64,000 bases of DNA from an uncultured virus (IMG/VR IMGVR_UViG_2871731064_000001) (IMGVR_UViG_2871731064_000001), one strand, 5' to 3'. Counted from the first letter of the stretch, positions 1,054 through 51,231 are shown. Made by a program: numbers and translations. Notes: a model not told the origin generated them from the sequence alone.

Positions 1054-1545
1054 ATGGACCAATCCCCGAACCGTAAAGCCTTTGGCGACATGCTGGCCTT
1101 TTCCGAAGGCACAAGCACACACCCATTAACCCGCATGAATGGCTATGACGTCATTGTGACAGGGCTGGGCGAAAAGCAGGGCGAAGTCTTTACCGACTTC
1201 AGCGATCACCCGTTTACACATCGCCGCGCAAAAGAGCTTAACAGCCATGGCTTGGCATCCACTGCAGCGGGCCGTTATCAGCAGCTTTACCGCTACTGGC
1301 CTGCCTACAAAAAACAGCTGAACCTGCCTGATTTTAGTCCTGCCTCACAAGAGCGCTTACTCGATCAGCTGCTGAAAGAGCAGGGTGCCTATGCGGACGT
1401 ACTGGCCGGACGTATCCGCACGGCAATTGGTAAAACTAACGATATCTGGGCCTCACTGACAGGATCGCCGTATGGTCAGAAAACGCATGCCATTGAGACG
1501 CTACTCAATGCCTACCAGAAAGCCGGAGGTATAATTACCGACTAA
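1054..1545 (+). CDS. Endolysin, lambda R-type lytic transglycosylase
   Basis: RKAFGDMLAFSEGT, GYDVIV, STAAGRYQ, DFSPASQ and IWASL motifs match lambda R. Confidence 0.92.
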   Translation: MDQSPNRKAFGDMLAFSEGTSTHPLTRMNGYDVIVTGLGEKQGEVFTDFSDHPFTHRRAKELNSHGLASTAAGRYQQLYRYWPAYKKQLNLPDFSPASQERLLDQLLKEQGAYADVLAGRIRTAIGKTNDIWASLTGSPYGQKTHAIETLLNAYQKAGGIITD

Positions 1546-2435
1546 CAGCCGCGCCAGCCTTCAGGGATCGCATAGTCCACGTTTGAGTAGTCGCCGCTTA
1601 ACGAGTCAACATAGCGGCGGCTTTTTGGGCTTCGATCACCAGTGGACTTAGTTTTAAAACTGGACTTTAGCAACTGATACGCTTCATGCAGTATTCCGCC
1701 TTTGCGCTGAAATTCTTCTGCGCGCCGTTCGTTCTGTGCAGCTGACGATGCGGCTGCCAATTGCTTCTGTGTATTCTGGTAAAAACCAAACTTTTTAGCA
1801 GGCGCTGACGTCTCAGGCTTGTCTGTAGTCATTTCCAGCGTGTCAGAATTTGATTGTTCCCCATTTAGTATTTTTCTTTTACTGAAGTGATCTCTTACTT
1901 CTTGTTGGTCACTTTGACCAGGGGGGGGCTGTTCATTTTGACTAGGGGTGGCGTGGAGAAAATCGTTTTTAAAGAATACTTTAGCAACAATTTTCCTTAC
2001 AATAGTTTGACGTCCTGAAGGCTCCAGATTGGCCTCTTTCAGTGCATCCAGACTTGCACGAACAAACGACAGCGCTTTGCTGGTGAATGTGTATTTACTG
2101 GGCTTGCTGACGCTATGATTTTTAACGTCTCGCTGTTCTTCATAGCTGAGGATACCCAGCTTGACGGCTAAGCGATAAGCGCGCTGAACGGTAGAGATAC
2201 TGCACCCTGCATCTTCAGCCAGATTTCTGAGTGACTTAACGATGATGAAGTCAGACGTTGAACCAGCCAGGTTGCAGGCAAATTTTAAAACGCGTGTGAG
2301 TGATTTTGGTAGTGGGGAAAGTTCAATTATATGAGTGAGATTGAAGCCTGAAATTCGGATAGATCTGTGTTCGTTATTTGAGCGATGTGCGGGAAATGTG
2401 TTGCCGGGATCGGCGCTATTAGATACTATAGGCAC
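1542..2435 (-). CDS. repL: Lytic replication initiator RepL
   Basis: ACNLAGSTS…GCSISTVQRAYRLAVKLGILS HTH region and C-terminal IPEGWRG match P1 RepL. Confidence 0.88.
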   Translation of the reverse strand: MPIVSNSADPGNTFPAHRSNNEHRSIRISGFNLTHIIELSPLPKSLTRVLKFACNLAGSTSDFIIVKSLRNLAEDAGCSISTVQRAYRLAVKLGILSYEEQRDVKNHSVSKPSKYTFTSKALSFVRASLDALKEANLEPSGRQTIVRKIVAKVFFKNDFLHATPSQNEQPPPGQSDQQEVRDHFSKRKILNGEQSNSDTLEMTTDKPETSAPAKKFGFYQNTQKQLAAASSAAQNERRAEEFQRKGGILHEAYQLLKSSFKTKSTGDRSPKSRRYVDSLSGDYSNVDYAIPEGWRGC

Positions 2436-2803: not shown

Positions 2804-3805
2804 TTATTTTGGGTTAATCCATAGCAGTGGTGTTGAGTCCACAGCTGGCGGGCGCGTTTGTGGTAATGTGTGCTGGTGGGCTGATCCGATTGGCAGTGTT
2901 GCCGTCGCATTTGTGCCGATTGATTCCAGCATTGCAGCGACAATCTGCGCATCTTCAGGCGTATCCATACGGCATAATGCCGCCTGCTGGGCTTTACTTA
3001 AAAACAGCGGCATGTTAGCCAGCGCATCCTTCATAATCCGGCGTCGCGCCTTTGCCACGGTGCCTGCACTCTCGATCATCAGCTGCGCGCTGCGCAGACG
3101 TTCCTCCAGCTCCAGACGCTTGCCGTGCTCGATGTGGAGCGCCGATTCCAGCAGCGAAGAATCCGCAGATTCCAGCATGGCCGTCTGGCTACGCAGGGTT
3201 TCAAAGTGCTGGATAATGTCAGCCGCCTGATTTTCTGAATACCCCTTTTCCATTAGCCCCGCGTGAATGGCGTCGGCGCGTTCATTGGCCGATTCCAGCA
3301 GCAGTGCAGGGTGATCCTGGCTGATATAGTTCGGATTGGTCACGTAGTCGAAGCCGTGAAAGCTGGTCACTTTTGAAATGGCGTTATCGTCGCCGCCAGT
3401 CGCCCAAGACCAGCCACCAGCGCGGGAACGGTTCATGCCGTCAACGATGTTGCCAGGCTCGGTGTCCAGAATCTCCTGAACGTGAGTCACGATGCCGTTA
3501 TCATCCACGCTGGCCTCCAGCGTACGGTTTGATGGTACGTTTTCCAGCGTGACCGGCTTACCGTCAATCATGACGACTGCAAATTCCGGCAGGTTTAGCC
3601 GTCCGGTCTTCGCGTAATAGGCGGCGCGACGTCCGTGGCCGTAATAGCCGAACATTTCTCCCAGCTGAATGCGCTCCTGAGTTTCGGGGCTGGCGAACGT
3701 TTCGCGCACCGATCGCAGCAGGTAATTGCGGTCATTCTGTGGAGTAAAGCGGCGGATTTTATCAATCAGGGAAAAACGATCCGTTACCGTGCGGAGTGCT
3801 TCCAT
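2804..3805 (-). CDS. pro: Head-processing protease, P1 Pro-like
   Basis: GYYGHGRR, H(V)QEILDTEPG and GGWSWATGG…GFDYV..PNY motifs; GAGG RBS; near prt. Confidence 0.8.
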   Translation of the reverse strand: MEALRTVTDRFSLIDKIRRFTPQNDRNYLLRSVRETFASPETQERIQLGEMFGYYGHGRRAAYYAKTGRLNLPEFAVVMIDGKPVTLENVPSNRTLEASVDDNGIVTHVQEILDTEPGNIVDGMNRSRAGGWSWATGGDDNAISKVTSFHGFDYVTNPNYISQDHPALLLESANERADAIHAGLMEKGYSENQAADIIQHFETLRSQTAMLESADSSLLESALHIEHGKRLELEERLRSAQLMIESAGTVAKARRRIMKDALANMPLFLSKAQQAALCRMDTPEDAQIVAAMLESIGTNATATLPIGSAHQHTLPQTRPPAVDSTPLLWINPK

Positions 3806-3875
3806 AACTTCCTCTTAATTACTATGGGATGCCCCGTAAAGCGGCGGCAGTGCTGGCGGTTGCCTGCACGAAAGG

Positions 3876-3896
3876 ATGGTAGAAAGGTTGTAATTT
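3876..3896 (-). promoter_or_regulatory. Putative late promoter for pro
   Basis: AAATTACA-N7-TACCAT on the minus strand. Confidence 0.7.
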
Positions 3897-4103
3897 ATGG
3901 GGTTAGTGATTCTTTAATAATGGCTGGATCTATTGACCAGTGGATAATTTCACATAAGACATATTGAATTTATCAGCACGGTGGCTATAGTGTGCGCGCC
4001 GCTGAAGAGATCCAGCGGCCAGGCTTGGAACCCTGAAAAAGCATGAGAACTGGCACATTGTGCCTTCGGCGCTACCACGTCCGGATTACTCCGGGCGTAT
4101 CTA

Positions 4104-4181
4104 TGGTGGCGTTGGTGGGGCTACCTTCGGGTAGGCCGGTTTTCTTGTGCACCGGTAGTTCCAACCCTGTCAACGTCACCA
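4104..4181 (+). ncRNA. c4: c4-family antisense RNA (P1 c4 / P4 CI type)
   Basis: Closing stem 4104-4120/4165-4181, CTACC-TTCG-GGTAG hairpin, CCGGT-loop-ACCGG hairpin and unpaired GTTCCAA; complementary TTGGAAC and GCACAAGGA/GCATGAGAA sites lie both upstream and downstream. Confidence 0.85.
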
Positions 4182-4235
4182 CCCGGAGATTGGAACCTCC
4201 TGTAGTGACGCTTCTTTTCGCACAAGGAGCATTTC

Positions 4236-4493
4236 ATGCCTGACATCCCCGACACGCCACCCCCGGCGACACTACTGTTTGAGCGTGCTATGACCGCTAT
4301 CAGCCAGACTGAAAGCGTCATCTGCCGTCGTGCCAAATGGGGTAATACACCCGTTCACGTTTTTACTCAGAATGACGCTGACAGCCAGAAGACATTTATC
4401 GTCATGGGTGAAACGGGCGCGCTATTTTTCTATGATCCTACGCCTGAAGATATTCTATCGTCAGACTGGCAGGTCATTTCGCTGCTACACTGA
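4236..4493 (+). CDS. DUF2829/Tad2-like (Thoeris anti-defence 2-like) small protein
   Basis: F-x-x-A-M…RRAKW…YDPTPEDILSSDWQVI fits the Tad2/DUF2829 pattern; AGGAG RBS. Confidence 0.7.
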   Translation: MPDIPDTPPPATLLFERAMTAISQTESVICRRAKWGNTPVHVFTQNDADSQKTFIVMGETGALFFYDPTPEDILSSDWQVISLLH

Positions 4494-4717
4494 ATCGGCA
4501 ATTTTTCATAGTGTCGCAAATTAGAGCTGATTCAGGTTTCAGCGGTTAATTCAGTTTAAATAACTCCGCTTGCCAGATCGTCTCTTTCGGGCGTATATAT
4601 GTCAGTACCAGGCTGAATATATAGTAGTGTCTGCCCGCAATTTAAGATTAATAATAAGAATCAATATCACTATCCTTTTCCTGTATAATCAGGATCATCC
4701 TTGCTTAAGGAATTAAC

Positions 4718-5188
4718 ATGTTAAAAGCAAAGAAATACTACGTGTCTTTTCATTATGAAAGCGGCACGCTGCTGCACCGGGAAGGCTGTAACTTACTCCC
4801 GAAATCGCCTGAAAGCCGGACTTTTATCGGCACCCTCTATACGTCGCAGCAGGCAATGACAGTAGCGGTGGTACATCATCGTAATACTGAACACTGCCCG
4901 GTATGTCTCAAGAAACAGAACCCCGAACAGGCTGATGCCCGTAAAGAGCAGTTCGCAAGCCTCAGCCAGAAACGGCGCACCGTAAATACAAAGAGACCTG
5001 TGTCTAAAGCAAAACCGGAGGTAGTGATAGCGACACAGAAATGCCAGTCCGATGGGGGGGCAAAAGTTATGCCAGCAGCAGCCGTAATGAAGAGCGCAAT
5101 GGCTCAGCCGCAGCACGGCCCGCAGCAGGTTGTGAGAATTAAAAAAGGTGTTGAAGCTGTTGCTGTGCAGCACTTTGTTTACAGTTAG
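4718..5188 (+). CDS. Hypothetical protein with an N-terminal His/Cys metal-binding domain and a Lys-rich tail
   Basis: HREGC…HCPVC; AAGGA RBS; TATAAT upstream. Confidence 0.65.
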   Translation: MLKAKKYYVSFHYESGTLLHREGCNLLPKSPESRTFIGTLYTSQQAMTVAVVHHRNTEHCPVCLKKQNPEQADARKEQFASLSQKRRTVNTKRPVSKAKPEVVIATQKCQSDGGAKVMPAAAVMKSAMAQPQHGPQQVVRIKKGVEAVAVQHFVYS

Positions 5189-5872
5189 CCTGATTAGCTG
5201 CATCTGATACCACAAAAACAGTCTCCTGATAACTGGCTGTCTGTTACCGCATGAAGGCTTACCTGCGTGCGGTTTTTTTTCCTGCAATTAATACGTTAAC
5301 AAGTATTCATGTAATAACGCTTATTAATAATCAGCGTGATTTACTAAGCCAGTAATAGTCATTTTAATTATCCGGGCAAAATTACCTCTTGTTTTGTCCA
5401 TGGAAATTAGATAACACCGGGAAGTACAACCTTGTAAGGCTTAACTCTATATGGTTTTTTTGGTCTGGCATTATTCTCAAAAATTATGCTGAATTGGCTA
5501 TATATTTATGAAGTGAAAATTTAAATTCAGTCACTTACATGTTGCTGAATGGTGAGGTTTTAAACAACGCGATTAATAATTAGTGCAGGGTAAATCTATA
5601 GTTCGTTAAAAAATGTTTTTAAAAGTAAAACTAAAATGCTAAGTTTTGTTAACGCAGACGGGCTAATGTGAAAAAGGTTGTTATATAAATTTTACATACA
5701 TTCATCTGTCGCTATTACGGGTTATGGATAGCCATGAATAGTACCAATTCCGAATGATAATTTCGTTACGCACAGCACCTCTGTTTTTGTCATCCAGGTA
5801 TATCCGCATTGATAAGATTTTTATCAACCGCACACCCCCTGAAAGTGGCGTGCGGCCTTTTTTTATTGGTTG

Positions 5873-7570
5873 TCAGCTGCCGGGTGTCGTCACGTAACGC
5901 GCAAATGCCACCAGCTCTTCATGCGTCCAGCTGGCCGGATCGGAGCCGTCAGGCGCGGATTCATTCATCATTCCGCTGCCGCCTTCATCCTCCTGCGCAT
6001 CCGCTTTCTTCCTGCTCTTCTCAAATTCCGCCAGCATCTTGTCGAGCGTGCCGCCGTCCATTTTCAGCTGATCGCTGAACAGGTAGCGCATGAACGTGTC
6101 ATTTTCCGCCAGCTTGTTGTTGGCCTGTAGCGCGTCCATGACCTGCACCATAAGGGTAATGAAGTTGGCGCGGGCGTCCATTTCGCGGCTTTCTTCTTCC
6201 TGAATGGCGGTGTTCATGGAGTTAAACTGCACGACATAGGGCCGATCGTTAACCGGGTACACCTTGCCGTATTTGAACGCCAGGTGAATGTCGATCAGTC
6301 GGTAAATCATTTCCTGCGCACCCTGTCGCAGCCACTGCGCCCGGAGTGCCGCCTGAATGGCCGTCTGAATCCAGCCGCCTTCACCCAGTCCGCCAGCCAT
6401 CTGATCGGCCCAGCCCAGCATAGTTGAGTCTATACCGAGCGCGGCGCACAGCTGGCGCAGGTGAAACATCACGTCCTCAATGCCGGTAATGTCGGCGGGT
6501 ATCGACTGCGTATCAATCGTAATACCGTTTTTACCATCACCCATCACCGGGATCACATGGTTCATCACGGTTGGCATGGTGTTACCGTTCACGGCTTTTT
6601 TCTGAAGCGCTTCGCCATGGCGCTTAAGCGTCTGCGATACGGTGCGGGTATAGTTCGCGCCTACAACCGGATCGAGTGAGTTGGTAGTCAGGGCAATCAG
6701 GCGGTCAATTTTTGCGGCATTATAGCGCGTTGCCTTCAGCGCATTCAGCGCGCCGACCAGGTTCAGGAAGGGTTCATAGGCATGCGCCAGGAAGCTGGTG
6801 CCATAGTTCTGCGTCTCCGCAACCTCCTTATCTTCTTCCTCCGACAGCAGAGAGTAACCGCGATTCCCGGACGTCACAGGCTGAACGTTGCGCGTGGGCG
6901 TCCAGTACGGATTTTTCATCGGGACCAGTGACCACGGCGTAGACAGTGTGCGGGTATGGGTATCAGGTGCCAGCACGTAATCACCGCCAAAACCCACCAG
7001 CTGATCGCCTTTATAAAACTCTTGAATGAAGTAGGGCAGCGAGTAATAGCTATTTTCCAGACTGGTGATCCCCTTGCCGGTACGGGCATAGGGGCGGACA
7101 TAGGAGACGCCGAAAATCGCCATGGTCATAGCCAGCGACGGCAGATGCCGGTTAATCATCGCGCCGAGATCGTCCTGCAATTCTTTAGCCCGCGCCGTGC
7201 CTTCTGCGTCAGACGGATCAACCGGCACGATAGAGAACGCCAGACCGGTTTTTTTGTCCGGCGCGAGTGCGTGGCCAATGTGGATATTCAGTGCGGCTGA
7301 GCACGTCGGGCTGTTAGCCATTTCCTCCAGAATCGCATAGCGCTGCAGCCGGTCCAGTGGCAGCTCCGCGCCCAGGTAAAGACTGTCGCCGGCAGAGGTC
7401 ATTTCCCCCGCCTTCCCCTCGTTGTATGCCATTGCCGCCAGCCCGGAGCGAGAGACAACCACGTTTTGCCCGTTAGTCCAGGCGAGGCTTTGCGGTGCAT
7501 CTGCTGCAGCGCCCCGGAATGCCTGCCTCAGTGCGCCTAAAACAGACAATGCCTTTTTTTTAGTAGCCAA
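5873..7570 (-). CDS. prt: Portal protein
   Basis: 565 aa, divergent from darB and upstream of pro as in P1; GGLGEGG motif. Confidence 0.8.
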   Translation of the reverse strand: MATKKKALSVLGALRQAFRGAAADAPQSLAWTNGQNVVVSRSGLAAMAYNEGKAGEMTSAGDSLYLGAELPLDRLQRYAILEEMANSPTCSAALNIHIGHALAPDKKTGLAFSIVPVDPSDAEGTARAKELQDDLGAMINRHLPSLAMTMAIFGVSYVRPYARTGKGITSLENSYYSLPYFIQEFYKGDQLVGFGGDYVLAPDTHTRTLSTPWSLVPMKNPYWTPTRNVQPVTSGNRGYSLLSEEEDKEVAETQNYGTSFLAHAYEPFLNLVGALNALKATRYNAAKIDRLIALTTNSLDPVVGANYTRTVSQTLKRHGEALQKKAVNGNTMPTVMNHVIPVMGDGKNGITIDTQSIPADITGIEDVMFHLRQLCAALGIDSTMLGWADQMAGGLGEGGWIQTAIQAALRAQWLRQGAQEMIYRLIDIHLAFKYGKVYPVNDRPYVVQFNSMNTAIQEEESREMDARANFITLMVQVMDALQANNKLAENDTFMRYLFSDQLKMDGGTLDKMLAEFEKSRKKADAQEDEGGSGMMNESAPDGSDPASWTHEELVAFARYVTTPGS

Positions 7571-16315: not shown

Positions 16316-16834
16316 GTGCTTTTTGATGCGCAATTTTTTACCGGATGCCCCACGTTCGAGCAGTATGCGCGCCGTAATAAGACGCGAAACAGCTTGGGAC
16401 GGGGGCTTTCGGTTTTTGCCGACATTGCTATGGACGTCGGCATTTTCAAAGTACCGAAGCAGGAGCTTATGACGCGCAGCGGCATGAGCAACCGCCAGCT
16501 GAATTATTTCGGCGGCGTGAGGGGGATTAGCTACATCTTGAGAAAATCATTAACAGAAGGACGCGGACGCATGACAACGGCACAGATCGAAGGTTTGAGC
16601 AAAATTGGAATCGGTGCCATTACGTGCAGCTACGACCAGGCCTTACTGAGAATGAAAGAAGATCCGGAATTGCTGATGCGTCGGGAAGCGTGGGAGGCGG
16701 GTTATTTTGTGTCGCTTGAGCAGGAGCATGAAGGCTGTGACGTGCTGATGCTGACCCGACCGGACGGCGGCGTGGAAATGCACGACCTGAGCATTAACGA
16801 TATGCGCGTAACTGACTGGGTGGAAGTCGCCTGA
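16316..16834 (+). CDS. Two-domain protein with a C-terminal DUF2829/Tad2-like domain
   Basis: YDQALLRMK…MRREAW…LSINDMRVTDWVEV. Confidence 0.55.
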   Translation: MLFDAQFFTGCPTFEQYARRNKTRNSLGRGLSVFADIAMDVGIFKVPKQELMTRSGMSNRQLNYFGGVRGISYILRKSLTEGRGRMTTAQIEGLSKIGIGAITCSYDQALLRMKEDPELLMRREAWEAGYFVSLEQEHEGCDVLMLTRPDGGVEMHDLSINDMRVTDWVEVA

Positions 16835-22138: not shown

Positions 22139-22723
22139 ATGATGACCGCTCAACAATTAAATGCCACGATCGCTATGTTCGCAGACGCCGAAGCTGACTA
22201 CGCAGGCGACTATATGGCACTTCTGGCGGTCATTGCCCGTCTTGGATACACCATTACAGAGACGTCCGAGACCAAAAACACCGGATATGCCGCCGTTATC
22301 AGCAAAAGTGGCCTGACAATGACCGGTTATGGCGAAACCCTGAACCACGCCGCCTGTGTCGCGCTGATTAAGTTGAACGATCTCATACTGCGTAATGAAG
22401 CGATGATTGAGACGGGCGAACTGAATTTCAGGCAGGAGCATGCACCGCTGGCCGTGGCACAGCTATGGCTATCTGAAGGCTGTAAGGTGGCACGGGAAAC
22501 ATGGGGGAAGGGAGTTTATCTCCGACTCAACAGAGGCGCGATGCGCGCCGCGCTGAAGGGAACAGACATGTACGGCGTACCGGCCCGTTACTTTGACTGC
22601 AGCCCGGAGACTACTGTCACGCAGATGCCTCAGCTTTTACTTATTGATGCCGAAAGGCTGACTGTCTCCGACTGGTCGCCTGCTTCTACCGATCTTCTCG
22701 CATGCGACTGGAAGCTGGTCTAA
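22139..22723 (+). CDS. Two-domain protein with a C-terminal DUF2829/Tad2-like domain
   Basis: LSEGCKVARETWG…WSPASTDLLACDWKLV. Confidence 0.72.
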   Translation: MMTAQQLNATIAMFADAEADYAGDYMALLAVIARLGYTITETSETKNTGYAAVISKSGLTMTGYGETLNHAACVALIKLNDLILRNEAMIETGELNFRQEHAPLAVAQLWLSEGCKVARETWGKGVYLRLNRGAMRAALKGTDMYGVPARYFDCSPETTVTQMPQLLLIDAERLTVSDWSPASTDLLACDWKLV

Positions 22724-25258: not shown

Positions 25259-25389
25259 TTAAATTATCCAGTGGTTTATTTCGTACTTTGATTGAGATTC
25301 AAAAGTACCACTAATTTTAAAAAAATGACACTTAAACGGTAACTTTCCAGCTCGTTTGTGTAGTCCCTGATCATTATTGTGATCACTGC

Positions 25390-28352: not shown

Positions 28353-29435
28353 TTATTCTTGGCCCTGCTTTTTCTGATTACTTTCTAACTCACGCAGCAA
28401 AGTGTACATATTGCGCATGTTTTTACCGGCGCGAGGCTCTTCACCACCGTAACGCTTACGAATTTCCGGCATAGTCAGCTGTTCTGTATCGCCAGCTGCC
28501 ACTTTCTTATCAAGAAGGCTCCAGTCATAGGCCTCCAGCTTTTCCAGCAGGTCGCGGTTTTCGTCGATTTCAGCCTTAAACAGACGCGCTTCCTGTGCGT
28601 CTTTTGCCTTCGCAATCTTAGCCTTTGCCCGGTTTTCAAACTGAGCGCGGCGCGTATTGACGGTGTAGGCAACTGAGGACCGCTGCGCCGCCAGGGTTTT
28701 GCTGTATTCTACGTCTTCCATCGTGTACAGCTTGGCATTAGGCAGCACTGAGCATGTGACTGGAGAGATCGCATCATAAGCGGACGTGTAACCGCCGTTG
28801 CTGTTAACGTTTAGCTTAATGTCGCGCTCTTTATTCAGGTTGTCGCCGTAGATAAGCATGCCGTGCGCGCCATACCGGAACGATTCACCTTCGTCTTTCT
28901 TGTCGTCGGTGTAACGCGCCGTTATCTGAATGTCAGAGTAGTTGCTGGTGCGTGCGCGGTACATTGCGCCAGGCGCGGCCTCTTCAAATACCTTTTTCTC
29001 ATCCTCCAGCGACATGATGGCACCGGCAGCAAACGGAACCTTGCGCAGCTTGCCGATCTGCTTCTCATAACGTCTGAGGATATCTTCGCGTGTGTGGTTC
29101 GCGGTCGCAGTGGCGCGGAAGCGGTTAATGGTGACGTGCTTAGGATTAACTATCAGGGTCGGAACTGGCAGATAGAGGTTCGTGGTGATAGCGATAGAAC
29201 GCGCTTTACGTTTCTCTTCTGCCAGGTCAGCAAAACTCTGCCAATCGGCCAGCAGGTGCTCGGCGCGCTGGAAGGCTTTCTTGTCAGTGATAAACCCGAT
29301 TGGACGGCATTCTTCACCCAAGGCGTTTTTATCAATGAAAATCTGGTGGTCCGTAATGAGAGTTAGCCACTCGGATTGTACCTGTAGAAAATGTTTATAA
29401 CGCTTCTCAAATTCTACATCGCTGAAGTTAGGCAT
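28353..29435 (-). CDS. c1: C1-like primary repressor
   Basis: PVPTLI and YDAISPVTC…PNAKLY.MEDVE match P1 C1 segments; lies between pacB and lox; start moved to the ATG at 29435. Confidence 0.8.
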   Translation of the reverse strand: MPNFSDVEFEKRYKHFLQVQSEWLTLITDHQIFIDKNALGEECRPIGFITDKKAFQRAEHLLADWQSFADLAEEKRKARSIAITTNLYLPVPTLIVNPKHVTINRFRATATANHTREDILRRYEKQIGKLRKVPFAAGAIMSLEDEKKVFEEAAPGAMYRARTSNYSDIQITARYTDDKKDEGESFRYGAHGMLIYGDNLNKERDIKLNVNSNGGYTSAYDAISPVTCSVLPNAKLYTMEDVEYSKTLAAQRSSVAYTVNTRRAQFENRAKAKIAKAKDAQEARLFKAEIDENRDLLEKLEAYDWSLLDKKVAAGDTEQLTMPEIRKRYGGEEPRAGKNMRNMYTLLRELESNQKKQGQE

Positions 29436-29821
29436 AATGTATTCCAAAAATATTAATGAGCGGTACAAGTCTCTCTGGACTTAATGCAGGCGAATATAGA
29501 CAGAATCAGTAGCCATGTAAAATTAACTCTCCTTAGAATTGCAATAATAAGAATAGTCTGCATTGTGCATCTGTCAGATATTTCCGCTGTACACGCTTAT
29601 CAATGAAACTGTGTGTTCAGGGTTATGTGACTACGACCAGGCGCAGCGCGCCCAAGGCAATAGCCTCAACTGATAATAGTAACTACTTGCAATCAAATTG
29701 AATGCCAAATGATCATATATGAAGGCATGCTTGCGATCACGAACAATAGCGTAACGAATTTGCAAATTTTTCGATTTAGTTACTCCTTAAGCCAGCATTC
29801 ACCCGATTAGTTCCAAAAAAT

Positions 29822-34204: not shown

Positions 34205-34582
34205 ATGGCCTTTCAGAGCCCCGCCCAGAACTACACTGAAACGCGCCTGAACCTGGGCGATTTGGTATATCTTTCCCCCTACTCAACCTATCTGATGCGC
34301 AGCGAGTCCGACTGCCCTGGCACCGGGATCGTCAAAGGGTCCGTGCTGGCCATCGATCGCGCCCTGACGCCGGCACACGGCCAGCTTATCGTGGCGGAGT
34401 TTGACGGCGAGCTGACGCTAAGGCGGTTACTGCTCAATCCGGTTCCCGCTCTACAAGCGCTGGATGCGGACGAGACTGTAACGCTGCTCGATGTGAGCCA
34501 GGCGCTTCCTGTGTGGGGTGTAGTGGCTTATGCCTTAACGGATGTGGCCGGGATCGGCTTTAACGGACCCGCTGGAGAGTAA
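34205..34582 (+). CDS. humD: HumD / UmuD'-like Pol V accessory subunit (pre-cleaved form)
   Basis: Starts at MAFQSPA, the cleavage-site position; S24 fold lacking the catalytic Lys (LTLRRL). Confidence 0.8.
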   Translation: MAFQSPAQNYTETRLNLGDLVYLSPYSTYLMRSESDCPGTGIVKGSVLAIDRALTPAHGQLIVAEFDGELTLRRLLLNPVPALQALDADETVTLLDVSQALPVWGVVAYALTDVAGIGFNGPAGE

Positions 34583-34584
34583 GC

Positions 34585-35847
34585 ATGTTCGCGCTGGCCG
34601 ATGCCAATAACTTTTATGCCTCCTGTGAAACCGTGTTCAGGCCCGATCTGCGCGGTAAGCCCATTGTCGTCGTTTCGAACAATGACGGCTGTGTGATCGC
34701 ACGTTCGGCGGAGGCAAAGCGCCTGGGGATCAAGATGGCGGCGCCGCTGTTTCTGAATGAGCGTTTTTTCAGACAGAATGGCGTGCATGTGTTCAGTTCC
34801 AATTACGAGCTGTACGGCGATTTATCTGCACGCATGATGGCCATCCTGGGAGAGATGGCGGCTGGACAGGAGGTTTACTCCATAGATGAGTCATTTCTGG
34901 ACGTCACCGGCATTAGCAATGTGATCCCCCTTGAGACGTTCGGACAGCAGATGCGTGAGCGCGTCCGGCGTGAAACCGGGCTGATTATCGGCGTAGGATT
35001 TGGCCCAACGAAGACGCTGGCCAAATTAGCCAACAATGCTGCGAAGAAATGGACGCAAACAAAAGGCGTGGTTGATCTGTCGAGCCGAACCCGGCAGCGA
35101 AAACTACTGCACCTGACCGACGTCAGCGATATATGGGGTATCGGCCCGCGCATTACCAAGCGCATGTATCAGCTGGGTATCAATACGGCTTTACAGCTTG
35201 CTGACAGCAACATCAGCATGATCCGGAAAAACTTTGACGTCATCGTTGAGCGCACTACCCGCGAGCTCAATGGTGAATCCTGCATTGCACTGGAAGACGC
35301 CCCGCCGCCAAAGCAGAATATTTTAAACTCCAGGTCATTTGGCGAGAGGATCACAGAGCTGGAGGACATGAAGCAGGCCGTCACACTGTATGCCACCCGT
35401 GCAGCAGAAAAGCTGAGAGAGCAACACTCACGTTGCCGTCATATTGGCGTGTCGATCGCCACCGCCAGGCACGGGGATGATCCGCAGTATTCGAATACGG
35501 CTTCCTGTATCTGTGATTACCCCACCAGCGATACACGGGACATTATTGAATCCGCCCTGCGTGGGCTGAGCACCATCTGGCGGGACGGCTACCGGTACGC
35601 CAAAGCTGGCGTAATGCTGGGTGATTTTTATCAATCTGGTGTGGCGCAGTTCGACATGTTCAGTGAGCAGCAGCCGCGGGCAAACGCAGATGCGCTGATG
35701 GCCGCGCTGGATGCTATAAATCGCTCCGGGAAGGGGAAGGTATTCTTCGCAGGACAGGGAGAGCAAGACAGCGCGTGGCAGATGAAGCGTGAAATGCTCT
35801 CGCCTCGATACACCACACGATTAAAAGATATCCCAGCTATAAAGTAG
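34585..35847 (+). CDS. umuC: Y-family DNA polymerase V subunit UmuC
   Basis: DANNFYASCE, SNNDGC, YSIDE, LSPRYTT. Confidence 0.95.
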   Translation: MFALADANNFYASCETVFRPDLRGKPIVVVSNNDGCVIARSAEAKRLGIKMAAPLFLNERFFRQNGVHVFSSNYELYGDLSARMMAILGEMAAGQEVYSIDESFLDVTGISNVIPLETFGQQMRERVRRETGLIIGVGFGPTKTLAKLANNAAKKWTQTKGVVDLSSRTRQRKLLHLTDVSDIWGIGPRITKRMYQLGINTALQLADSNISMIRKNFDVIVERTTRELNGESCIALEDAPPPKQNILNSRSFGERITELEDMKQAVTLYATRAAEKLREQHSRCRHIGVSIATARHGDDPQYSNTASCICDYPTSDTRDIIESALRGLSTIWRDGYRYAKAGVMLGDFYQSGVAQFDMFSEQQPRANADALMAALDAINRSGKGKVFFAGQGEQDSAWQMKREMLSPRYTTRLKDIPAIK

Positions 35848-46021: not shown

Positions 46022-47287
46022 TTATTTCATCTTTACGACGGGTAGCTCTTCCCAGCGCGTCAGATAGCGCGGAGAGAGCATTTCCCGCTTCATCTGGTAG
46101 GCCGGATTAACGCCCTGACCGGCAATAAACAGCGTGCCGCGCTGATAGCTGTTCAGCTTGTCCATCACGGCCATCAGTTTATCGCTGCCGGGTCGCGGCG
46201 GAGCCTCGTCAAACAGGTTCAGCTGCTGCTCTGAACCGCAGAACTCCCCCAGCATCACTCCGGCCTTCGCATACTCATAGCCGTCGCGCCAGATAGCTCT
46301 GAGGCCGCGCACGGCGGCATCAATCAGATCGCGGGTATCCTGTGTGGCCGTCGTAAATGAATGGCTGGCACCGCGTGAGTAATACGGGCGGCGCGGGTCG
46401 TGTTTGCTGGTCTGAATGAATACGGTGATATTCCGGCAGTACTGCTTTTCACGCCGCAGCTTTTCACCGGCGCTGGTGGCAAAGAAGCAAACCGCGTTAC
46501 TCACTTCATCCAGGCTGGTGAGGCGCTTGCCGAACGAACGGCTCACCACCAGCTGCTGCTTAGTCGGCGGGTTCTCTTCGAGCTCGAAACAGCGTTCGCC
46601 GCGCAGCTCCCGCACGGTGCGCTCCAGCATCACGTTGAAGTTTTTGCGGATCATGGTTGTGTCAGCACGGGCAAGGTCGAGCATCGTTTTGATGTTCATC
46701 AGCTGCAGCCTGGCCCCTATCTTTCTGCCGACGCCCCACGTTTCGGAGACGTCGAGCAACGATAGCAGCTTGTCGCGCCGTTTCGGGTCGGTCAGCACCA
46801 CCACGCCGCCTGTTTTAGGCCAGGTCTTTGCTGCGTGCGTGGCTACCTTACAGAGCGTCTTTGTCTCTGCTATCCCTATGCCGCATTTCATCGTGGTGTG
46901 CTGGATTACGGTGCGCCTGATCTCTTCCCCGAAGGTCTGGAAGTCCACCAGCTTTTCCATGCCGTCCAGAGAGCCGAAAACCTCGTCAATCGAGTACGCT
47001 TCCAGGTTCGGAACGTATTCACCCACTATCGTATGGAAACGCTTGCTGAATGCGTCATACAGCGTGTAGTTGCTGCTGAACACCACCACGCCGTAGCGCC
47101 GAATGGTATCGCGGATTTTAAACAGCGGATCGCCCCGCTTAAGGCCCACATTCTTTGCTTCGCGGTTCAGCGCCGCGATACAGCCGTCGTTGTTCGTCGC
47201 CACCACGACAGGACGCCCGTGCAGGTCCGGCCTGAATGCCAGCTCCGCCGACACGTAGAATGCGTTAACGTCACTGTGCAGGAACAT
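46022..47287 (-). CDS. umuC: Second UmuC (Pol V)
   Basis: DVNAFY, NNDGC, YSIDE, LSPRYLT. Confidence 0.95.
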   Translation of the reverse strand: MFLHSDVNAFYVSAELAFRPDLHGRPVVVATNNDGCIAALNREAKNVGLKRGDPLFKIRDTIRRYGVVVFSSNYTLYDAFSKRFHTIVGEYVPNLEAYSIDEVFGSLDGMEKLVDFQTFGEEIRRTVIQHTTMKCGIGIAETKTLCKVATHAAKTWPKTGGVVVLTDPKRRDKLLSLLDVSETWGVGRKIGARLQLMNIKTMLDLARADTTMIRKNFNVMLERTVRELRGERCFELEENPPTKQQLVVSRSFGKRLTSLDEVSNAVCFFATSAGEKLRREKQYCRNITVFIQTSKHDPRRPYYSRGASHSFTTATQDTRDLIDAAVRGLRAIWRDGYEYAKAGVMLGEFCGSEQQLNLFDEAPPRPGSDKLMAVMDKLNSYQRGTLFIAGQGVNPAYQMKREMLSPRYLTRWEELPVVKMK

Positions 47288-47711
47288 TGTCAGTACGGTG
47301 GATGACGTATGTCACCACCCCCCATATTTCCAGACCATCAGGCTCGACAGGGATCGGCTTATAGCGCGGGTTCATAGCCAGCAGCATCGGCACCGGCCTC
47401 AGCTGCAGCTTTTTTACCGTAAACTCCCCGTCCACAGAGGCAATCACGATCTGGCCGTCTGCCGCCGCCTTCGATTTATCCACCACCAGCAGATCGCCGT
47501 CAAAAATACCGGCCCCGATCATCGACTCACCCTCACAGCGGACGAAGTAAGTCGCTGTCTTTGCCCTCACACAATACTCGTTTAGGTCCAGTGGTGTGTC
47601 TTCATATCCAATGGCCGGAGACGGGAACCCCGCCGCCACTGTTTCAAGAAATTGCCTGAAAGCCTGACGCGGCGCGGCTTCATCTGGTATTGCTATTATT
47701 TTTAAGCGCAT
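47271..47711 (-). CDS. umuD: Full-length UmuD
   Basis: VAAGFPSPA cleavage site; GESM catalytic Ser and FTVKKL catalytic Lys. Confidence 0.95.
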   Translation of the reverse strand: MRLKIIAIPDEAAPRQAFRQFLETVAAGFPSPAIGYEDTPLDLNEYCVRAKTATYFVRCEGESMIGAGIFDGDLLVVDKSKAAADGQIVIASVDGEFTVKKLQLRPVPMLLAMNPRYKPIPVEPDGLEIWGVVTYVIHRTDNVPAQ

Positions 47712-47745: not shown

Positions 47746-47829
47746 TATAAGATTAGGAGTATGGAATTGACCAGTGGGTGATTTCATATCAGAATAGGTC
47801 CACTCTAAAATTTTAAGAATTTCCCCATT

Positions 47830-51122: not shown

Positions 51123-51231
51123 CTGCCGTGATGATTAACTAAGTGCCATAACCAGTGGACAATTACGGATTGCTTTACAGATTCCGCGAGGTGATCAACA
51201 ATCTAAAAAATATTTTAGAATTGGTTAAATC

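Follow-up and report, generated by a model that had tools for sequence, protein, structure and literature searches.

What does a c4-type antisense RNA control where icd and ant, the genes that follow it in bacteriophages P1 and P7, are missing? The question is raised by a regulatory cassette in a 64,000-nt stretch of DNA from an uncultured virus (IMG/VR record IMGVR_UViG_2871731064_000001; the whole stretch is referred to below as the window), in which a C4 RNA stands directly upstream of an open reading frame (ORF) for an 85-amino-acid (aa) protein of the DUF2829/Tad2-like family. In P1 and P7, the immunity region immI has the order a1/b1, c4, a2/b2, icd, ant1/2, its biology reportedly being set out by Citron and Schuster in 1990; in P1, RNase P cuts mature c4 from a longer precursor, and an RNA of about 77 nt accumulates. 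A first-pass annotation of the window had proposed that the same kind of switch here governs a Tad2-like gene instead of icd and ant. Comparison among related sequences, reported here, indicates that both the RNA switch and its connection to a Tad2-fold gene are genuine and have been conserved, and that c4 very probably represses translation of the 85-aa ORF. The further proposal, that a P1/D6-like Pantoea phage-plasmid here carries an immI-type regulatory cassette cut down to a single cargo gene, with an anti-defence activity of the Tad2 kind, is in our judgement evenly balanced.

The C4 RNA and its co-varying target sites

A search against Rfam returned a single match across the entire window, a C4 antisense RNA (RF01695; 84.2 bits against a gathering threshold of 45, E 4e-15) that covers the model from end to end (positions 1-87 of 87). 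Assignment to the family is supported both by this score over the full model and by the presence of exposed a' and b' segments complementary to flanking sites, with the b2 site placed on the ribosome-binding site (RBS) of the next ORF (Table 1). The RNA family and the order of elements are those of P1/P7 immI, where b2 likewise covers the Shine-Dalgarno sequence of the first ORF, and the P1 layout claimed for this switch in the first-pass annotation is thereby borne out; every motif and coordinate that it gave agreed with the sequence. When a P1-like IncY plasmid was compared directly, the same order was found, with b2 over the icd RBS, followed by ant, kilA and a repL-like gene.

The b2 site and the b' loop can form ten contiguous pairs, two of which are G-U, and the AGGAG within b2 (4225-4229) ends 6 nt 5' of the ATG at 4236. 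In the minimum free energy fold of 3998-4245, a1/b1 are paired with a'/b' of c4 (z = -5.2). The leader that carries a1 and b1 is at best a diverged member of the c4-a1b1 family (RF03163), since its full-length match at 3985-4039, obtained in a permissive 401-nt search (E 1.6e-8), scored 39 bits against a cut-off of 46.7. A related leader RNA is IsrK of the Gifsy-1 prophage, which according to the available text of one report gates a downstream regulator (PMC4825925); the isrK match here (3998-4061) lies far below its cut-off (23.4 bits against 50), and the cargo is different.

Comparison of b', b1 and b2 across eight loci provides strong evidence that these pairings are in use. The b' loop occurs in four sequence types, namely UUUUCUUGUGCA (window, L003, L046 and L047), UCUCCUCGUACG (L002, the Pantoea agglomerans plasmid pPA-MXU-90), UUCCCUUGUACG (L048) and UUUCCUCGUACG (L049 and L050), and b1 and b2 carry the matching changes each time, compensatory changes in b2 being found in L002, L048, L049 and L050. 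The clearest case is L002, in which b1 and b2 are both GUACGAGGAG, a perfect 10-nt complement of its loop. Between the window and L002, the C4 RNA differs at 8 of 88 nt, 5 of them within the 12-nt loop; between the window and L003 it differs at only one of 88 nt, while the synonymous sites of the ORF are saturated (dS 1.4-2.1). The duplex between the window loop and the translation-start site has a predicted energy of -13.8 kcal/mol, a value reached by 16 of the 9139 plus-strand 28-nt windows of the stretch. Cognate loop-site duplexes range from -13.5 to -18.2 kcal/mol, as against -5.7 to -8.6 kcal/mol for the L002, L049 and L050 loops on the window-type site. By these comparisons, pairing between the RNA and its targets is under selection.

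The linkage between the RNA and its cargo is equally consistent. Related loci were sought with single proteins and a four-sequence alignment as queries, and a full-length relative of the 85-aa protein was present in 13 loci (eight viral contigs, three metagenome contigs and two plasmids), each with C4 immediately before it on that strand, even where the cargo allele shares only 31-38% identity with the window protein; C4 was upstream in none of the six loci with partial weak matches only. As far as these loci represent it, this Tad2-fold sub-family is strictly linked to c4. It is also small: 25 matches were obtained among 1.84 billion cluster representatives, several of them long, multi-stretch matches read as repeat proteins, and the two matches among 401 genomes of the order included one convincing case, that of G001. 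This genome served as a stand-in for the source assembly; it has 48% of the window's sampled words in common and carries the same cassette on its plasmid contig (designated C4). No match was obtained among viral contigs with proteins P0015 and P0018 as queries, or in a phage collection by tblastn with the ORF.

These data bear directly on the possibility that c4 and the ORF are mere neighbours, the RNA acting elsewhere and the overlap of b2 with the RBS being an inherited remnant. Such a coincidence is very hard to credit, given that the linkage holds in 13 of 13 loci, that b2 tracks the loop in all four loop types, that G001 contains only one C4 copy, and that c4 and the convergent portal gene of L002 have no other ORF between them.

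C4 is common: of 151 genomes of the taxonomic family, 67 have a match, and the first ORF was recorded for the 30 best-scoring of about 196 matches. Half of these loci (15/30) have an icd-like ORF of 63-66 aa, recognized by length and N-terminal motif because no Pfam family exists for it. The remainder comprise proteins of 130-155 aa of no assigned family (5/30), Rha (3/30), Bro-N (2/30), HTH_35 (2/30; a 96-aa Ner-like DNA-binding protein in L016 of G079 and L022 of G097) and broken or uncalled ORFs (2/30), and a Tad2-like protein follows C4 only in G001, a near twin of the window (1/30). The cargo of C4 modules is thus more varied than icd and ant, and Tad2-like cargo is rare among them.

Table 1. 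Positions of the c4 cassette, its regulatory sites and neighbouring features in the window
Feature	Position	Strand	Remarks
Candidate operator, ACCAGTGGATAATTT	3936-3950	+	14 nt 5' of the -35 hexamer
Sigma-70-like promoter	3964-3991	+	TTGAAT (3964-3969), 16-nt spacer, TATAGT (3986-3991); 9/12 consensus matches
Leader with a1 and b1	3985-4049	+	Rfam c4-a1b1 match below cut-off
a1 target, TTGGAAC	4025-4031	+	in hairpin loop of leader
b1 target, GCATGAGAA	4041-4049	+	in leader; co-varies with the c4 loop across relatives
C4 antisense RNA (RF01695)	4099-4186	+
b' hairpin loop, 12 nt, TTTTCTTGTGCA	4140-4151	+	exposed in the Rfam consensus structure
a' unpaired strand, GTTCCAA	4158-4164	+	exposed in the Rfam consensus structure
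a2 target, TTGGAAC	4190-4196	+	complementary to a'; invariant in all aligned relatives
b2 target, GCACAAGGAG	4220-4229	+	complementary to the b' loop; includes the Shine-Dalgarno AGGAG of the ORF
DUF2829/Tad2-like ORF, 85 aa	4236-4493	+	acidic, soluble; c4-linked sub-type with motifs ICRRAKWG and PEDILSSDW
Hairpin 3' of the 85-aa ORF	4526-4543		scan gives a minus-strand terminator-like site only; plus-strand T-run poor
156-aa ORF	4718-5188	+	no Pfam, PHROG or NCBIfam match; in low-GC insert (~4500-5870); variable downstream cargo, a candidate only for c4 control
Head-processing gene pro (head protease)	2804-3805	-	5' flank of the c4 cassette
Portal gene	5873-7570	-	other flank of the c4 cassette
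C1-like repressor	28356-29468		29% identity to D6 C1
Other ACCAsTGGrTrATTT site	25261-25275	-	motif scan
Other ACCAsTGGrTrATTT site	47770-47784	+	motif scan
Other ACCAsTGGrTrATTT site	51151-51165	+	motif scan

Transcription and proposed timing of the switch

Upstream of the leader, both hexamers of the sigma-70-like promoter are invariant in a three-way alignment; the promoter match alone is not significant, as a consensus scan gave four promoter-like sites in the region against 4.7 expected. A degenerate 15-nt motif, ACCAsTGGrTrATTT, is more informative. It occurs at four sites in the window against 0.5 expected (none of 100 shuffles reached four), all of them intergenic: before c4, between a par-like gene and pacA, before a 71-aa ORF, and before a ref-like gene (51151). 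At the cassette, it is invariant at the same offset, 163 nt 5' of c4, in all seven related loci examined. The copy at 3936-3950 is probably the operator of the phage's C1-like repressor. No sequence in the window fits the P1 C1 operator consensus, even with three mismatches allowed. A probable repressor operator at the promoter and a loop-target specificity that differs between relatives are both points of likeness to P1/P7, and the available text of a study of P1 describes its c4-icd-ant operon as C1-repressed and fully silenced only with c4 (PMC8198154).

On these grounds, the following course of events is proposed. The promoter, probably repressed by the C1-like protein through 3936-3950, would give rise to a single transcript comprising the a1/b1 leader, c4 and the mRNA of the 85-aa protein; a hairpin downstream of the ORF (4526-4543) might conceivably mark the end of this unit. 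Mature c4 would be cut from the transcript, a step that RNase P performs in P1, and would then bind a2 with its a' strand and b2 with its b' loop. Since b2 lies over the Shine-Dalgarno sequence, translation of the 85-aa protein would stop once c4 accumulates and would remain off in the lysogen, while a genome entering a cell without cognate c4 would direct a brief synthesis of the protein. A burst of anti-defence protein followed by shut-off is a plausible reading of this arrangement.

A similar logic is known from anti-CRISPR/Aca circuits, in which a strong early burst is followed by automatic shut-off through a helix-turn-helix (HTH) transcriptional repressor encoded in the same operon; in the present cassette, repression would fall to a processed antisense RNA, at the level of translation. 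The pairing of c4 with a Tad2-like gene had been thought undescribed, and a literature search, which did not cover supplements, indeed gave no paper linking c4 with Tad2 or DUF2829. Antisense-RNA control of Tad2 is likewise unmentioned in the available text of two studies of the family (10.1101/2023.05.01.538930 and 10.1101/2025.08.24.671296). What is new is a c4 switch placed directly and solely on the RBS of a Tad2-fold gene, the c4 RNA type itself being well known.

A Tad2-fold protein and its possible roles

The 85-aa protein belongs to the Pfam family PF11195 (Tad2-like, formerly DUF2829), with 30.2 bits against a cut-off of 25 over profile positions 3-73 of 73, and the alleles of L002 (29.3 bits) and L003 (29.4 bits) also exceed this cut-off. 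Searched with NCBIfam, the ORF gave no match. It is a genuine gene under purifying selection, with dN/dS values of 0.09-0.41 in six pairwise comparisons among four alleles. Solved Tad2 chains were not reached by a single-sequence search of the PDB or by a narrow 10-sequence profile; they were matched by a 19-sequence profile (A4), which recovered SPO1 Tad2 gp34.65 (8wje, 8sme; E 1.5e-5), ModTad2 (9eib), 8v3e and HgmTad2/AcrIIA7 (8kbi). An AlphaFold (AF2) model (pLDDT 82) shows the Tad2 topology of an N-terminal helix and a five-stranded antiparallel sheet (H10-24, E28-32, E41-46, E52-57, E63-65, H70-73, E78-82), and ranks 1-21 of the Foldseek matches listed are all Tad2 entries (TM 0.62-0.78; for 8smg_B, TM 0.66/0.73 and rmsd 2.1 A). 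The Tad2 fold, on which the first-pass proposal depended, is thus present, and the ORF was rightly called Tad2-like.

Tad2 sponges are homotetramers with pockets at the protomer interfaces, in which gcADPR or another immune signal is bound. The protein shares with SPO1 gp34.65, ModTad2, SptTad2 and HgmTad2/AcrIIA7 its family membership by score, its fold, its size and a W...(aromatic)xPS/TxxDxLxxDW signature, at an identity of 13-18% to the solved chains. Ligand-contact positions were mapped through HMMER profile alignments and the published residue list for SPO1 Tad2, in which W25, N26, W73 and D79, and also S76 and T78, contact the ligand according to the available text (10.1101/2023.05.01.538930). 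Across the 19 aligned sequences, W35 (equivalent to W25) and D72 (D79) vary little or not at all, Y66 (W73) remains aromatic (Y/F), and T69 (S76) remains S/T.

Rapid change of the cargo on a nearly constant background is a second feature of the loci. In L048-L050, Pro is 96-99% identical and the cargo 31-38% identical to that of the window; on the L002 plasmid, the corresponding values are 98.9% for C1 and 69% for the cargo. Such fast divergence on near-constant Pro and C1 backbones has, at the sequence level, the character of an arms-race pattern. Tad2 homologues have diverse ligand specificities, as stated in the available text of Hadary et al. (10.1101/2025.08.24.671296). The fold, the conserved pocket-like positions, the fast cargo divergence and the diversity of Tad2 ligands all fit a protein that would act as a Tad2-kind anti-defence sponge, as the first-pass annotation proposed with Thoeris and CBASS signals in view. 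It would bind a host immune signalling nucleotide during early expression and then be silenced, which would leave the lysogen with its host's defences intact; this reading, the favoured one, is put forward tentatively, at slightly less than an even chance. An AcrIIA7-like anti-CRISPR role belongs to the same family, is inseparable from it by sequence, and is counted here within anti-defence.

A harmful rather than protective protein would also suit the position of the ORF, which is first after b2, in the slot of icd. In such an Icd-like or type I toxin-antitoxin-like pair, the protein would harm the cell (for example, by a division block) and c4 would serve as the antidote, with plasmid addiction or a pause upon infection as the outcome. 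Type I systems have just this layout, with an antisense RNA covering the RBS of a small ORF, and the corresponding protein of the P. eucalypti plasmid pEuc3 carries the PGAP name 'MW1434 family type I TA system toxin' (TA, toxin-antitoxin). However, no BLASTP alignment of the ORF to P1-like Icd was obtained at E <= 100, so that an icd gene in first place, as in P1-type immI, is lacking. With a pI of 4.5 the protein is acidic, and it lacks any hydrophobic stretch, its highest 19-residue Kyte-Doolittle mean being 0.68; it is therefore not a small hydrophobic peptide and is unlike membrane-active type I toxins. The MW1434 label derives from a bioinformatic list, in whose source, as far as its available text goes, experimental tests were confined to Fst, TxpA and a holin (PMC6266405), and the newer NCBI name for homologues is 'Thoeris anti-defense Tad2 family protein'. 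A toxin role is accordingly considered improbable.

Several observations weigh against the anti-defence interpretation of the cassette. With respect to the protein, the equivalent of N26 is lost (G36), that of T78 is E71, and the beta2-beta3 loop of the model is without helix alpha2, which in SPO1 Tad2 forms a dimer contact according to the available text (10.1101/2023.05.01.538930); in PHROG, the ORF matches a family that bears the label 'transcriptional regulator' (E 0.002). A higher-scoring Tad2-like domain lies elsewhere in the window, in a 194-aa protein at 22139-22723 (+) (43.7 bits, residues 110-194, with the canonical W...WSPASTDLLACDW), and a third, in a 172-aa protein at 16316-16834 (+), scores just below the cut-off (24.1 bits) and has the RRxxW motif of the c4-linked type, so the c4-gated copy is not needed as 'the' sponge of this plasmid. 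The 194-aa paralogue likewise has G after W. With respect to the host, neither the CBASS cyclase domain SMODS nor the Thoeris-type TIR domain ThsB_TIR was found in the lysogen G001, and each occurs in only 5 of 75 genomes of the genus. With respect to the RNA, the U-rich window loop wobble-pairs with other target types through G-U at -10.7 to -11.5 kcal/mol (-7.7 kcal/mol for the L049 site), which makes the specificity asymmetric; moreover, the element was recovered entire (98,191 bp), as a single contig at flat depth, in four RNA-labelled runs (five runs contain the stretch), where neither transcription nor RNA ends are visible. Two further points concern phage D6 and the C1 repressor and are taken up below.

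In both proteins with additional Tad2-like domains, at 22139-22723 and 16316-16834, the domain is C-terminal, and the N-terminal region of about 100 residues is without explanation.

Known antirepressor genes are missing from this lineage. No ANT, Bro-N or Rha domain was found on the plasmid contig of G001 (the matches in that genome sit on contig C2), and no antirepressor label occurs among the 68 window ORFs (PHROG) or the 29 annotated features in the remaining 31 kb of pEuc3. Unlike P1 and P7, the Pantoea cassette has no icd, ant or kilA, and no antirepressor (ANT/KilAC, Bro-N or Rha) is coupled downstream; its sole coupled ORF encodes the Tad2-fold protein. The claim that a Tad2-like gene stands in place of icd and ant therefore holds for this lineage, where both are missing. 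It is not alone, however, in having a DUF2829 module governed by c4, as phage D6 (MF356679) demonstrates.

D6 has two c4-icd-ant modules, orf19-orf18-orf17 and orf83-orf82, with C4 and c4-a1b1 RNAs above the Rfam cut-offs, and a neighbourhood similar to that of the window (repL-like, pro, prt, darB and lysozyme). A DUF2829-like module with CRRxxW and DW motifs is under c4 control in both phages. In D6, orf17 (65 aa), annotated merely as a hypothetical protein in the record, is the last gene of the c4-icd-orf18 operon, and the same module forms the C-terminal 65 residues of orf82, a Rha-type antirepressor candidate in the second operon. Compared with profile A4 by hhalign, orf17 gave a probability of 52% (E 1.5e-4) and the orf82 tail 64% (E 6.5e-5). 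The D6 module is shorter and scores below the Pfam cut-off (65 aa, 15.2 bits), and it either follows icd and a Rha-type protein at the end of the operon or forms part of the latter as a fusion, whereas the Pantoea protein, at 85 aa and above the cut-off, is encoded by an ORF that is both first and alone, immediately under b2.

The occurrence of this module inside c4-icd-ant operons makes a role in the immunity switch a serious rival, and this is the first of the two further points. On that reading, the 85-aa protein would be the output of the switch, a minimal antirepressor or antirepressor module countering the C1-like repressor or another lysogenic control, and the cassette would be a true, stripped-down immI. 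The absence of any other antirepressor domain or label from the plasmid would then be accounted for. The second point is that, among the Pantoea plasmids, C1 and the specificity of c4 assort independently of each other: the L002 plasmid combines a C1 98.9% identical to that of the window with a different loop, and PSNIH1 combines a C1 of 45% identity with the same loop. This recalls P1/P7 heteroimmunity, which acts through immI. In P1, C1 is bound by Ant and also by the small protein Coi, as reported in the available text of one study (PMC8198154). Against an antirepressor, cargo identity falls to 69% with C1 at 98.9%, and to 31-38% with Pro at 96-99%, which would not be expected were C1 its partner; the fold and the conserved W, aromatic and D residues match a ligand pocket; hhalign connects the protein to D6 only weakly; and for the D6 Rha-type proteins themselves, an antirepressor role is no more than an annotation. 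Taken together, an antirepressor function is regarded as unlikely.

A related proposal extends to the whole c4-linked DUF2829 clade, stand-alone here and present in D6 as a terminal gene and as a Rha-type fusion. The clade might be an effector or sensor module of the immI switch rather than a free sponge, its Tad2-fold domain either inactivating a C1-type repressor or binding a host immune second messenger and coupling it to the lysis-lysogeny decision. This, too, we consider rather doubtful. Were the sensor form of it true, a plasmid-prophage could flee a cell whose abortive-infection alarm had fired, and the Pantoea cassette would be its minimal natural form.

Phage-plasmid setting and implications

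By its gene content and closest relatives, the window is most of a P1/D6-like Pantoea phage-plasmid. Its 68 ORFs include genes typical of the group by PHROG assignment (darB, ulx, pmgS, lpa, pacA/pacB, ref, tail and baseplate genes), and window positions 3900-5300 are 99.6% identical to pEuc3, the sole record with at least 80% query cover among 144 matching plasmid records. The head-protease and portal genes flank the cassette, whereas P1 immI lies beside sim, kilA and repL. Lytic replication is also arranged differently from P1. A 297-aa HTH_36 protein at 1542-2435 (-), assigned to phrog_2418 with weak replication-initiator-like matches, sits in the slot of the D6 'repL-like' gene, and its gene is on the strand opposite to c4, so that lytic replication is not downstream of c4 here. 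The window also has two PolV-type gene pairs resembling umuD/umuC, at 34205-35847 and 46022-47711, in opposite orientations.

Between the cassette and the portal gene is an insert with a GC content of 30-45%, as against 55-58% in the flanking DNA. It and its 156-aa ORF are absent from L002, in which the stop codon of the Tad2-like gene is 54 bp from the portal gene; the 156-aa ORF was found in L040-L047. The plasmid pPSP-26e contains a shorter and diverged version (48% over 77 aa).

Compared with the 98,191-bp relative from the four runs, 39 of the 40 differences listed (at least 46 in total) crowd at 3332-3873, and none falls at 3874-4419. This distribution points to a mosaic boundary just upstream of the operator and promoter, and the c4 cassette would seem to be transferred whole.

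The timing and limiting of phage anti-defence proteins are known mainly from anti-CRISPRs with protein repressors. With the present cassette, a compact test system of about 530 bp is available, in which natural variants of RNA and target specificity on near-identical backbones provide ready controls of the compensatory-mutation type. Questions that can be addressed with it include the gating by c4 of cargo other than icd and ant, and the role of the c4-linked DUF2829 branch as sponge, antirepressor or sensor. If the protein does act as a sponge, the c4 RNA of a resident prophage would also disarm incoming relatives, which would constitute a new kind of superinfection immunity.

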